From: a virus
Taxonomy: Duplodnaviria; Caudoviricetes
Length of the DNA: 64,000 bases
Direction: 5' to 3' (one strand)
Virus record (IMG/VR): IMGVR_UViG_3300012952_003952
Coordinates: 160,001-224,000 of that record
In this document: piece by piece, positions 45,676 through 49,761 of the stretch
Layout: every line of letters begins with the position of its first letter
Numbering within the stretch: the first letter of the stretch is position 1
Translations under genes and position numbers: made by a program
The notes under the pieces: model-generated
The model's database searches: none
Told to the model about the DNA's origin: nothing
What the model saw: the letters and a program-made list of their open reading frames with translations, nothing else

Positions 45676-46683
45676 ATGCCCAAGAGTAAAAGATCTAATT
45701 TGTTAAAAACACTAGACGACATTTTATTCGAAGACGTTTATCAAAAATACGGATCCGAATATATGTCGCACGGAATGTCAAAAGACGAAGAGCAGTTTAC
45801 GGTTCCGCAATCTCTTCCAATTCAGGCGTTCGACCAAATGGCGACTCAGCTTACAGTAGAGAGACCGCCAGTTGAAGATTCAGATTATATTCCAGATGGA
45901 GTAGAAGAATTAGCACGAGCAGCTTCCGCTGTAGCCCAGCAAGTTCCAAGAGATCAAGTTTCTTCTTTTTATGAAAAAATAAAATCTGCTTTAGAAGCAT
46001 CTATTGCAGATGAAAATGATCCAGAGACAGTTTCTCCAGCGCAAGAAAAAGAAGAAGCAGCAGAAGCTGCCATAGAATCAGAAGTCGCACCTCCAGTAGT
46101 AGAAAGTAGGCTAAGGTCTTTTTTAAGAGAGCAATTAAGCGATTGGGGGACTCCCGATCCAAGGTACGATAAAAAGAAGAAAGAAGACTGGGAAGAGGAA
46201 GACGCTCCTGCGGGAAGGCCTGGGAAAGATACTATAAAGGGAAAATATATAGCTCCCTATTATGACAAAAAAGGTCCAAGCGGAGTAAACGTTTCTAGCG
46301 ACAGACTAATGCAAAATTTTTTAGCTCCACTTTTTGAAGTTCCATCTGAAGATTTAAAAGACTCTATGGACTATGTGAAATATTTTTACAACGAACACGC
46401 TACAGGCGAAGAACCCCAAGGATCTCAGCAAGCTTTTGTAAGCTACGTCCTCAAAAAAGTGGTAAAGAAAGAATTGAAAAAAGGAAGTAATCTTACCCAA
46501 ACTCTTTTACCAGCCGTTGTGCAGCACGTTAAAGAGATGCCAGATAAAGAATTTGCTCAGTTAATAGACAAGGCTTCTAAAGAATCTTCTAGCGAACTTC
46601 AAGCTAGAGGAGAGTTTGCAGATATGCTTCAAAAAGAAGACCCAGAACAGTTTAAACTTCTACAAGATTTAGGTCTTGCGTAA
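45676..46683 (+). CDS. Hypothetical protein
   Basis: 335-aa ORF after an ATACTTA motif; contains RLRSFLREQ. Confidence 0.6.
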   Translation: MPKSKRSNLLKTLDDILFEDVYQKYGSEYMSHGMSKDEEQFTVPQSLPIQAFDQMATQLTVERPPVEDSDYIPDGVEELARAASAVAQQVPRDQVSSFYEKIKSALEASIADENDPETVSPAQEKEEAAEAAIESEVAPPVVESRLRSFLREQLSDWGTPDPRYDKKKKEDWEEEDAPAGRPGKDTIKGKYIAPYYDKKGPSGVNVSSDRLMQNFLAPLFEVPSEDLKDSMDYVKYFYNEHATGEEPQGSQQAFVSYVLKKVVKKELKKGSNLTQTLLPAVVQHVKEMPDKEFAQLIDKASKESSSELQARGEFADMLQKEDPEQFKLLQDLGLA

Positions 46684-47066
46684 TGATGCTTCAAGAGCTG
46701 CTAAAAGAATATCTAGATTCAGAGAAAGAAGAAGAAATACCTTTTCTGCAAGAGGGAATTTATTTTAGTGTGCCCATAGTTCCCCAACAGAAAAATCATT
46801 GGGAGGTGATACCGTCGCCAAACAGGCTTTCTAGATCTTATGATTTTGAAAGTTCTGAAATTTTGAAAATTTTCTTAAACGAAGCCCTAGATTACCAAGA
46901 ATCAGTTCAACACCATGGAAAATTTATTGTAGAACATCAGAAAGTTACAATAGAAATCTACACACACGATTTAGACGATGTAACAGAAGTAGACTTAGAA
47001 TGGGCTAAGATGATGGATAACATATACAAGGACGTTCAGTTTTATGTCTCAAGAACCCAATTCTGA
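46683..47066 (+). CDS. Pterin-4a-carbinolamine dehydratase-like protein
   Basis: W......LSRSYDF, QHHG, VTIEIYTHD and VTEVDLEWAKMMD follow the PCD pattern. Confidence 0.7.
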   Translation: MMLQELLKEYLDSEKEEEIPFLQEGIYFSVPIVPQQKNHWEVIPSPNRLSRSYDFESSEILKIFLNEALDYQESVQHHGKFIVEHQKVTIEIYTHDLDDVTEVDLEWAKMMDNIYKDVQFYVSRTQF

Positions 47067-47604: not shown

Positions 47605-48264
47605 TTGGCAAAACAGAATATTCTGGAGAAGAAACAAATGAAGCTTTCTCTTCTAGATGAAATAACAGAAGCTTCAGTAAGAGATGCTTTTCTAGAAGTG
47701 TATTCTAATTTGCTCGAGCAAAAAGAGCAAACAAAACAAGATAAAGCATCTGAAGAAATTAAAGATTTAGATCTTCGCGCTAATAAAAAAGCTAGACCCA
47801 CTGACGAAGAAGAAGTCGAAGAAGAAGAAATAGAGGTAAAGACGCAAGTCGAGCCAAAAGAAGAAAAACCCGAAGTAGTAATACCAGAAACCTTGCCCGA
47901 TGTTTTAGAAGCCGAATCTATTATTAAGTCAATAAACGTGATTCGATCTGGAAATTCTTTAAAAGATCCAGGCGTGCAAGAGAGGTTTGGTATTTATTTT
48001 GATAAATTATCACCGCCTGAAAAAGTAGCCTTGAAAGGTTTCTTAGACGGGTTAGCTCAAGTCATTGCAGGAGACGTTCCCGGCGAAGAGGCTACTAGTC
48101 CAAAAAATCCGCCGTACAATGTTACTATGCAAGACAATCCAGATCAAAAATCCAGAGAAGTTAAACCTCCTCCTGGCACTGGAGAGCCTGACGCTCCAAT
48201 TATAGTTGGAGAAAGTGCTAATAAATCTTGGGTTAAAAATGTGTTTTCAAAAAACTTACTTTGA
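47605..48264 (+). CDS. Acidic hypothetical protein
   Basis: 219-aa ORF with an LLEQ motif. Confidence 0.6.
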   Translation: MAKQNILEKKQMKLSLLDEITEASVRDAFLEVYSNLLEQKEQTKQDKASEEIKDLDLRANKKARPTDEEEVEEEEIEVKTQVEPKEEKPEVVIPETLPDVLEAESIIKSINVIRSGNSLKDPGVQERFGIYFDKLSPPEKVALKGFLDGLAQVIAGDVPGEEATSPKNPPYNVTMQDNPDQKSREVKPPPGTGEPDAPIIVGESANKSWVKNVFSKNLL

Positions 48265-48271
48265 TTCTTTT

Positions 48272-48398
48272 GGCGGGCGGCTGTTCCTATCCACGGTCGA
48301 CCATAGGTTAAGCGATCACTCACTACTTTTCACCGATGCCCCATGCGGTTAAACCGCTTCATTCCCCGGTGAATATGTATCTTCGCCGGCCGTCCGCC
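48272..48398 (+). ncRNA. Candidate structured non-coding RNA of unknown family
   Basis: 127 nt, 73 G+C (57%) in an AT-rich intergenic gap; 12-bp terminal helix GGCGGGCGGCUG/CGGCCGUCCGCC plus internal stems. Confidence 0.55.
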
Positions 48399-48424: not shown

Positions 48425-48454
48425 TGTAAAAAAGCTTTGATTCTATGATATAAT
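48425..48454 (+). promoter_or_regulatory. Sigma70-like promoter
   Basis: GTAAAA (48426-48431), 17-bp spacer, TATAAT (48449-48454); AAGGAG RBS follows. Confidence 0.65.
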
Positions 48455-48477: not shown

Positions 48478-49761
48478 ATGGGAGGTATCGCTAAGCATCT
48501 AAGCCACGTCTGGGAAGACTTGGATATGACCTTTGGGGATTTGAAAGGAATACTTTCAGAAGCCAGTCAGGGAAATCTAGAGGCTGTAGAGAAATGGGAT
48601 GGAGTTAATCTTCACTTCTGTGTAGATTCTTCTGGGATAGTACGTTTCGGCCGAAATGATACGCACCGCAGAAATGGCGGACTAACTCTTAGAGAGTTGA
48701 GAGACTTCTTTGAAGGCCACCCAGCTCAAGATACTTTCGTCCGCGGTGGAATTGCTATTTGCGAAATGGTCCAGGATTCATGGTGGCCACTTGGTTTCTC
48801 TAAGAGAAATTGGGTTAATTGTGATGTCATCGATACGAGTCGGCCGCAGTTGCTGAACTACGACAGAAACGCTGTAGCCCTTCATGAAGCTGTGTCTTAT
48901 GACGCCAATGGATTCAAGCTCGCATCAACTAGCGAAAGTGTTAAAAATCAATTCAAGAAATTAGTTGAGTCATTGCCATCGAGTGTGTCTTTCGATGGAG
49001 AAGAGTTTGATATAGTCGGTCCAAAACTTATTGAAGTGAATGAAATAGCTGGTACCGATGAATACTACCAGATACTAGAAGCGATAAACGAATGTCAAAA
49101 GTCGACGTCTCTAAGCGATGAAGATACACTCCGCGAATTTGCTTATCGCTCTGTCTACACTGGAGTAACTAGTCAGATCAACATCTCTGAAAATAAAGCT
49201 AAAGATTTAGCCAATTTAATTGTCGGATATGAATCTCCTACATTGGTCCAGATTAAAAAAGGTATGCCTGTTGGGATCGCCAGCCGTATATCTTCAGTTG
49301 GTAAATCTACAGTCAGGGGAAAAGTGGTTGCTGAAGCGATGCTTCCAATAGAGACAGCGTTCACAACGCTTGGAGCTTATATCTTAGATGGAGTATCTTC
49401 TACTTTAATCAACAACCCCGCAGCTGAATGTGAGCGAATTAAAACAGATTATATTTCTTCTCGTAGCGTATGCGAAAGTGTAGATGATGGCTTTCAAGCT
49501 CGTAGAATTGAAGCTATCGAAAAACACATTAGGAAAATAGAATTAAGTAATTACCACATAGAAGATTCCATATTCTCCGGCTTTGCAATTGAGGGCTTAG
49601 TGTTCGAGAAGAATGACAGGAAATATAAGCTCACAGGCAACTTTGCTCCTGTTAACCAAATTGTTGGAACGACTAGATACGGCAGAGGAAAGATACCTGC
49701 GGTATCGCCAAGCTCTCAAAACAAAGAATATTCTATCTTAGAGGGATTTTCAGTCGGCTAG
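48478..49761 (+). CDS. Ligase-like (KxDG) nucleotidyltransferase-fold protein
   Basis: VEKWDG (motif I-like), EGLVF (motif IV-like) and YKLTG. Confidence 0.45.
   Translation: MGGIAKHLSHVWEDLDMTFGDLKGILSEASQGNLEAVEKWDGVNLHFCVDSSGIVRFGRNDTHRRNGGLTLRELRDFFEGHPAQDTFVRGGIAICEMVQDSWWPLGFSKRNWVNCDVIDTSRPQLLNYDRNAVALHEAVSYDANGFKLASTSESVKNQFKKLVESLPSSVSFDGEEFDIVGPKLIEVNEIAGTDEYYQILEAINECQKSTSLSDEDTLREFAYRSVYTGVTSQINISENKAKDLANLIVGYESPTLVQIKKGMPVGIASRISSVGKSTVRGKVVAEAMLPIETAFTTLGAYILDGVSSTLINNPAAECERIKTDYISSRSVCESVDDGFQARRIEAIEKHIRKIELSNYHIEDSIFSGFAIEGLVFEKNDRKYKLTGNFAPVNQIVGTTRYGRGKIPAVSPSSQNKEYSILEGFSVG

Follow-up and report, generated by a model that had tools for sequence, protein, structure and literature searches.

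The question raised by this locus is whether a short GC-rich stretch, lying between two genes of an uncultured phage, encodes an RNA of its own and, if so, how such an RNA could act. The window (the whole stretch of DNA analysed, 64,000 nucleotides) belongs to a 242-kb IMG/VR phage record that is 57% complete, and the element is single-copy in this record. The original prediction had described, at 48272-48398, a 127-nt multi-stem element rich in GC and closed by a 12-bp helix (P1), and all of its coordinates are correct, the ends of the RNA being putative. The GC content of the element is 57.5% versus 38.6% for the window, and a value of 57% is reached by only 0.16% of 120-nt segments; the minimum free energy (MFE) of the + strand is -46.7 kcal/mol, with z = -3.4 relative to dinucleotide shuffles. 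The MFE fold of this strand contains P1, the P2 hairpin, a 7-bp stem and a 5-bp hairpin as they had been described. Three features had been missed: P3 (48312-48315 with 48383-48386) together with a 3-bp helix, which makes the structure a three-way junction, an 8-nt palindrome at 48295-48302, and a 9x9 C-rich internal loop (48336-48344 / 48358-48366). In the predicted architecture P1, P2 and P3 meet in the junction, P1 and P2 are joined by a linker of 2 nt, P2 carries a loop of 12 nt and is separated by 4 nt from the long arm, and the long arm is formed by P3, P3b, P4, the 9x9 internal loop and P5, its 3' end abutting P1 directly. The parts of the putative RNA are the following.

48272-48398, + strand: structured RNA, predicted three-way junction, 127 nt (ends putative), from the fold and the homologues
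48272-48283, + strand: 5' strand of P1, partner 48387-48398; GGCNGGCR in 15/15 members, 6/12 pairs invariant
48286-48307, + strand: P2 side hairpin (48286-48290 with 48303-48307); stem swapped wholesale between lineages
48295-48302, + strand: palindrome GGUCGACC in the P2 loop; candidate symmetric kissing or dimer site
48312-48335, + strand: 5' strands of the long arm (P3 48312-48315, P3b 48324-48326, P4 48329/48330-48335)
48336-48344, + strand: 5' C-rich unpaired tract of the internal loop
48345-48357, + strand: P5 apical hairpin; covarying stem, unconserved loop
48358-48366, + strand: 3' C-rich unpaired tract of the internal loop
48367-48398, + strand: 3' strands of P4, P3b, P3 and P1
48399-48406, + strand: pyrimidine tail UCUUGUUU; its conserved part is 3-4 pyrimidines, with no U-tract

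The MFE by itself does not choose a strand. The + strand is favoured because of the G-U pairs in P1: both of those pointed out originally turn into mismatches on the - strand, and one or two G-U pairs are kept on the + strand in 11/11 long members outside the L298/L301 branch.

Loci were gathered by means of the flanking proteins, and the gap 3' of the upstream 219-aa gene was then read. This gave 15 distinct full-length homologues and two partial ones, which come from marine metagenomes and some apparently freshwater ones and belong to uncultured aquatic giant phages. Thirteen of the full-length copies are long (126-134 nt) and two are short (73-75 nt; L247 and L300), and their identity to the window copy is 39-80%. 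A covariance model built from three close copies retrieved divergent copies at E values of 1e-3 to 1e-18, and a second model (R2) added L298, L301 and the short L300. In the fitted alignment 93% of the cells pair, two-sided changes are found in 27 of 37 pairs, and sliding the pairing partners lowers pairing to 40-50%; these covariation counts are inflated, given that the alignment was model-fitted to the structure and holds one spurious row. When each sequence was decomposed by hand, it was observed that the P2 and P5 stems are wholly replaced yet still pair, and that compensatory changes are present in every helix. RNAalifold on an unaided MAFFT alignment recovered only P1 because the interior of that alignment is out of register. 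From the homologues, the pairing of each helix and the G-U pairs of P1, we therefore conclude that the element is an RNA whose structure is conserved, rather than a GC island that arose by chance. The original suggestion of a small structured RNA outside the known families is thus borne out, on the one hand by covarying homologues, the proposed collection of relatives having given 15 full-length copies with covarying helices, and on the other by the Rfam search, in which the proposed cmscan run returned no family at the gathering threshold.

The distribution of this RNA is narrow. A blastn search of annotated phages gave chance matches only, outside the element; DNA patterns run over IMG/VR also gave chance matches, the covariance model rejecting all but one known copy, and a pattern for the short form gave no match in IMG/VR. 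Model R2 was run on 23 further records of related phages, two of which are >90% complete, and detected no copy at another site (there was one 20-nt match at chance level); it also detected none in 61 Planctomycetota genomes, a set that was reached through a probably mis-binned contig and represents an unlikely host, so that this null shows little. The contig, L333, is a 2.5-kb fragment of the phage group inside a Planctomycetota MAG. No catalogue or paper describing the RNA was found, and it may have been listed before in the motif files of PMC10690425, a catalogue of viral structured RNAs. The element is a real, uncatalogued and clade-restricted phage RNA family of about 127 nt.

A comparison with known RNAs delimits what this family could be. 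Against Rfam 15 the window gave no match at the gathering threshold, and at E <= 10 only chance matches appeared (window, L246, L300). In line with the original statement, neither Rfam nor ARAGORN identifies the element in the window as a tRNA, tmRNA or SRP RNA; instead of a GNRA-capped SRP motif its apical loop is unconserved, and instead of a CCA end its 3' flank is YCYY-like. The size (about 120-130 nt) and the three-way junction recall 5S rRNA; in contrast, the order of the arms is reversed, the short one being first here, the resemblance is gone in the divergent members, and the 5S model RF00001 gives no match. P1 looks like 5S helix I, and a short stretch that follows it looks like the loop C region; within 48280-48313 a short stretch is reminiscent of bacterial 5S rRNA at helix III/loop C, a likeness that is not retained in the divergent members and has no model match. 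A bacterial Y RNA (YrlA/YrlB) was also considered; no TROVE/Ro60 gene is found in G000 (57% complete), and there is no match with Rfam or ARAGORN. Myxococcus Pxr, which consists of three serial hairpins, was dropped, with no Rfam match.

One of the functions proposed originally was that of a 6S-like decoy of the RNA polymerase, in which the C-rich internal loop would mimic an open promoter. Paired ends and a large internal loop are indeed shared with 6S RNA, the 9x9 loop of the window is symmetric and flanked by helices, and, according to PMC8876501, a truncated 6S RNA with only the bubble and short arms still cycles in vitro. However, 6S RNA is a long rod with a conserved, long-armed bubble, whereas the phage RNA is a three-way junction with an apical arm of only 5-6 bp and a variable loop that L121 does not retain and that the short forms lack; its length is 127 nt versus the 187 model positions of RF00013, a model that detects nothing at E <= 10 and for which the positive controls gave a signal in 7/14 genomes. 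The likeness to the 6S family accordingly falls, and a decoy mode of action is left as very improbable.

The remaining proposals concern the neighbours of the RNA, which in the window are the following.

47605-48264, + strand: upstream gene, 219 aa, function not assigned; its homologues start at ATG 47638
48425-48454, + strand: promoter-like TGTAAA ... TGnTATAAT of the ligase-like gene, 3' of the RNA
48478-49761, + strand: 427-aa nucleotidyltransferase (KxDG motif) with a predicted RNA-ligase-like fold

The 219-aa gene precedes the RNA in every member, with its stop codon 4-18 nt before P1. In eight loci the operon continues into a gene of 86-92 aa that starts 13-21 nt after P1, and the RNA fills the whole gap. 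When the upstream protein was placed in a tree, the loci with the RNA fell within one clade of 28 rows; a well-supported group of 12 nested in this clade lacks the RNA, as do all 25 rows beyond the clade. The ancestral arrangement was apparently the 219-aa gene, followed by the RNA, the 86-92-aa gene, the promoter and the ligase-like gene. The 86-92-aa gene was lost in the window branch (G000 has none) and in the L246 branch, and the RNA was retained in both. In distant phages, where the RNA is lacking, this gene lies next to a neighbour or is fused with it; the domain is found at the C-terminus of the 219-aa homologue in L259, L261-L263, L265-L268, L270-L274 and L276, and at the N-terminus of the next gene in L260, L264 and L277. 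Its product (L120:2353-2619, L121:5690-5950, L123:5198-5458, L247:4828-5094, L301:3545-3820 and L309:3870-4148) shows a CxxC motif in most cases, many invariant Arg residues, a helical hairpin and a virion-type leader. The 88-aa version folds as a plain hairpin of helices, no structure being clearly related to it, and its candidacy as an S15-like binder was dropped since no specific match was obtained. The fusions of the 219-aa and 88-aa proteins prompted us to consider an intron or a ribosome hop; both were rejected, given that the stop codon lies outside P1 and the second gene has its own start, and inspection by eye revealed no consistent matched take-off and landing codons.

These arrangements bear on the proposal that the element ends the late operon as an elaborate intrinsic terminator. 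In the window the operon does end there, and the GC-rich P1 is followed by the pyrimidine tail. Nevertheless, the element was not called by the intrinsic-terminator scan, the loop closed by P1 would have 103 nt, C-rich text takes the place of the U-tail in L247, L298, L300 and L301, so that four members have no U-tract, and the operon runs on in eight loci. The terminator part of the original proposal therefore fails, and we regard it as scarcely credible.

The other part of that proposal, a stabiliser, can be widened to a cis element of the late mRNA, that is, a 3'-UTR or intercistronic stabiliser or a processing site serving the 219-aa gene, and not a free RNA. The fixed position after the stop codon, the filled gap, the single match per genome with no other site in the 23 related records, and the lack in most members of a promoter of their own are all consistent with it. 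Against it, a simple hairpin would suffice for such a role, and the C-rich tracts, the palindrome and the invariant P1 would be left unexplained; moreover, the 219-aa gene does without the RNA in the 12 nested loci and in all distant relatives. A further objection comes from ATATTTA (variants ATAnTTA), the top enriched 7-mer upstream of genes in G000 and G026, which is strand-biased, is enriched <=60 nt before starts and is a candidate late promoter of this phage group. This motif starts 12-13 nt before P1 in L246, L289 and L299, a start-site spacing seen in one branch; upstream of the RNA it has no match in the window or in the other members. We consider a cis role unlikely.

The RNA had been put forward as a substrate or guide of the ligase-like protein. 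This protein has no Pfam or PHROG match; its structural model (pLDDT 88) has archaeal Rnl3 and T4 Rnl1 as the closest structures (E 6e-4 to 4e-3, low TM-scores), which supports an ATP-dependent RNA-ligase-like fold. Many homologues of 600-730 aa exist, a few of which bear a cytidyltransferase-like name or annotation (P0045, P0058, P0065). At every RNA-bearing locus with enough sequence the gene lies within one gene of the RNA, a linkage that synteny explains. The RNA could be a substrate or cofactor of this enzyme, for instance one circularised across P1, which brings the ends together; Rnl3 Pab1020 circularises RNAs, as cited in PMC12558985. In contrast, the gene is widespread without the RNA and persists in the 12-locus clade that lost it. 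In G026, a complete genome, it is split by one in-frame TAA into 151 + 262 aa (L123:5509-6789, that is G026:C1:245723-247003), and the RNA is intact. It also has its own promoter-like site, of which there are seven in G000 and 15 in G026, all on the + strand; the RNA is not the leader of the ligase gene because this promoter separates them, and a riboswitch or leader was rejected for this reason. Hence, the predicted fold stands and an obligate partnership does not: the ligase-like gene is a neighbour and not an obligate partner, the RNA is independent of both downstream genes, and a role as ligase substrate is quite improbable.

Several features are kept in the RNA itself. The sequence GGCNGGCR and its partner are found in P1 of all 15 copies and six pairs never vary, an invariance that suggests sequence-specific recognition. 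The two C-rich tracts are present in 13/13 long members; they comprise 145 C, 58 U, 24 A and 13 G in 240 nt (60% C, 5% G) and are mostly unpaired by prediction. The internal loop that holds them varies in size (9x9 in the window; 5x14, 7x8 and 11x1 elsewhere; none in the short forms), and in L121 the second tract has been relocated to the apical loop, the tracts surviving this change of topology. In the branch of L246, L289, L299 and L309 the tracts are anti-Shine-Dalgarno (anti-SD) sequences: the motif CCUCCUCCC, which is the anti-SD motif of the cuckoo RNAs (PMC4615179), occurs exactly, once each, in L289 and L309, near-matches occur in L246 and L299, and the window copy lacks it. Paired with a model SD, the L289 and L309 tracts reach about -8.7 kcal/mol versus -6.3 and -3.3 for the weak tracts of the window, and tract sequence differs even between close relatives (window and L119). 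The short form (L247:4742-4814, L300:3775-3849) consists of P1, the P2 hairpin and a short arm with a loop cap containing UCGA, without C-tracts, and may be either a minimal version that occurs naturally or one that differs in function.

The exposed C-rich tracts and the self-complementary loop of P2 suggest an RNA that may silence genes and pair with itself. The explanation that we favour, tentatively and with less than even confidence, is a free late RNA acting in trans, the C-tracts of which would pair with G-rich ribosome-binding sites, perhaps as a dimer. Late in infection the RNA would be cut from the late-operon transcript or, in one branch, be made from its own late promoter; P1 would protect the ends or be bound by a protein; the tracts would pair with ribosome-binding sites, most likely those of host mRNAs, and this pairing would dampen translation, as with the 6C, cuckoo and RsaE-type sRNAs; and two copies could kiss through the P2 palindrome, dimerise and present four tracts. 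This explanation is consistent with the composition and exposure of the tracts despite the rearrangement in L121, with the exact anti-SD motif in two members and the late-promoter motif before P1 in three, with the survival of the RNA after the loss of the 88-aa gene in two branches, and with the dimer gain predicted for most of the palindromic hairpins. On the opposite side, the tracts drift between close relatives, unlike a typical seed; those of the window are weak SD binders; among 167 orthologue pairs of G000 and G026 no conserved phage target beats shuffled seeds (26% of shuffles equal), and no long antisense target was found in the phage genome; the short forms lack tracts, the window lacks an upstream late-promoter match, the palindrome is not general, and the conservation of P1 sequence is left unexplained.

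Several bacterial RNAs offer parallels for such pairing. The cuckoo RNAs of Alphaproteobacteria (RSs0680/CcsR, alpha-r14) have two to four adjacent hairpins with an anti-SD motif in each loop and no multiloop (PMC4615179). The phage RNA resembles them in exposing an anti-SD motif, with two motifs per molecule, and differs in that both of its tracts belong to one internal loop, within a closed three-way junction, and the window has no exact motif. In Actinobacteria, the C-rich loops of the 6C sRNA bind mRNA directly, with no chaperones (PMC6486639), and sRNAs of the UCCC type, such as RsaE and RNAIII, are summarised in PMC4615179. Like these, the phage RNA is small and structured and has two C-rich tracts in single-stranded form, and by analogy it may work as they do; in contrast, they use hairpin loops, whereas the phage-encoded RNA has an internal loop, a closing helix conserved in sequence and a palindromic side loop. 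Judged by models and topology, it belongs to neither the cuckoo nor the 6C family.

The invariant P1 leads to a different explanation, in which the RNA is a decoy or scaffold whose P1 and C-tracts are read by a protein of the host or the phage (a binder of C-rich RNA, a nuclease or a defence protein); the RNA would possibly be dimeric and possibly packaged in the virion. P1 is conserved beyond the needs of pairing, and this holds for the short forms too; in the tracts it is the composition, not the exact sequence, that is kept; and the RNA gene sits among genes with virion-type N-terminal leaders. This explanation accounts for the invariant P1 and for conservation of composition only better than pairing with SD sequences does. 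However, it has no candidate partner: the 57%-complete record gave no Ro60/TROVE, and the 88-aa neighbour, for which no structural relative stands out, has been lost from loci that still carry the RNA. We see protein binding as a possible but doubtful function.

The trans-acting reading includes the palindrome, which has four sequence forms of 8-10 nt in the P2 loop and measures 6 nt in L119/L283 (where it includes wobbles) and in L121. An apical mini-stem takes up part of it, and the central tetramer is unable to pair within one molecule. This tetramer switches among UCGA, CCGG, CUAG and UCGG and stays self-complementary; between the close relatives L246 and L289, CG changes to UA at both central positions. 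The forms are spread over two branches, with none in a third branch; L298, L301, L310 and the short forms have no palindrome, and that of L119 is weak. In five of seven palindromic P2 hairpins (window, L123, L246, L289 and L309) the dimer gain exceeds that of loop-shuffled controls (fractions 0.007-0.033), L121 being borderline and L119 not significant. About three changes are informative, with a rough chance estimate of 0.04-0.15, so the switching is only suggestive of a symmetric kissing loop, a lead and not a result. In OLE and GOLLD, the switching of palindromic tetramers has been used as an argument for symmetric kissing loops (PMC12286853). OLE, GOLLD and ROOL share with the phage RNA this type of switching and the condition of a phage-borne RNA with no assigned function (PMC12286853); they are several times larger, have no sequence or model match with it, and here oligomerisation is predicted only.

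The most elaborate version, in which the RNA would be a homodimer joined by the kissing loop that exposes four anti-SD tracts (or mimics the 3' end of 16S rRNA) and shuts down host translation or sequesters a host factor late in infection, seems rather improbable to us. If true, it would be a new architecture for a phage regulatory RNA. Mechanisms are known for only a few phage-encoded regulatory RNAs. Should the RNA silence ribosome-binding sites or dimerise, it would add an RNA-based means by which jumbo phages take over the host. The family is small and can be synthesised, it offers three separable modules (the invariant closing helix, the palindromic loop and the C-rich tracts), and natural variants already lack the palindrome or the C-tracts.

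Other features of these phages were also recorded. The 242-kb record has a tmRNA and two tRNAs away from the element, and a tmRNA is present in both genomes (G000:C1:32740-33108 and L381:12354-12761). In G026 there are, in addition, at least eight tRNAs, and Rfam gave nothing further. A pterin-4a-carbinolamine dehydratase-like gene, at 46683-47066 of the window, is constant in the late-gene block of nearly all sufficiently long relatives.
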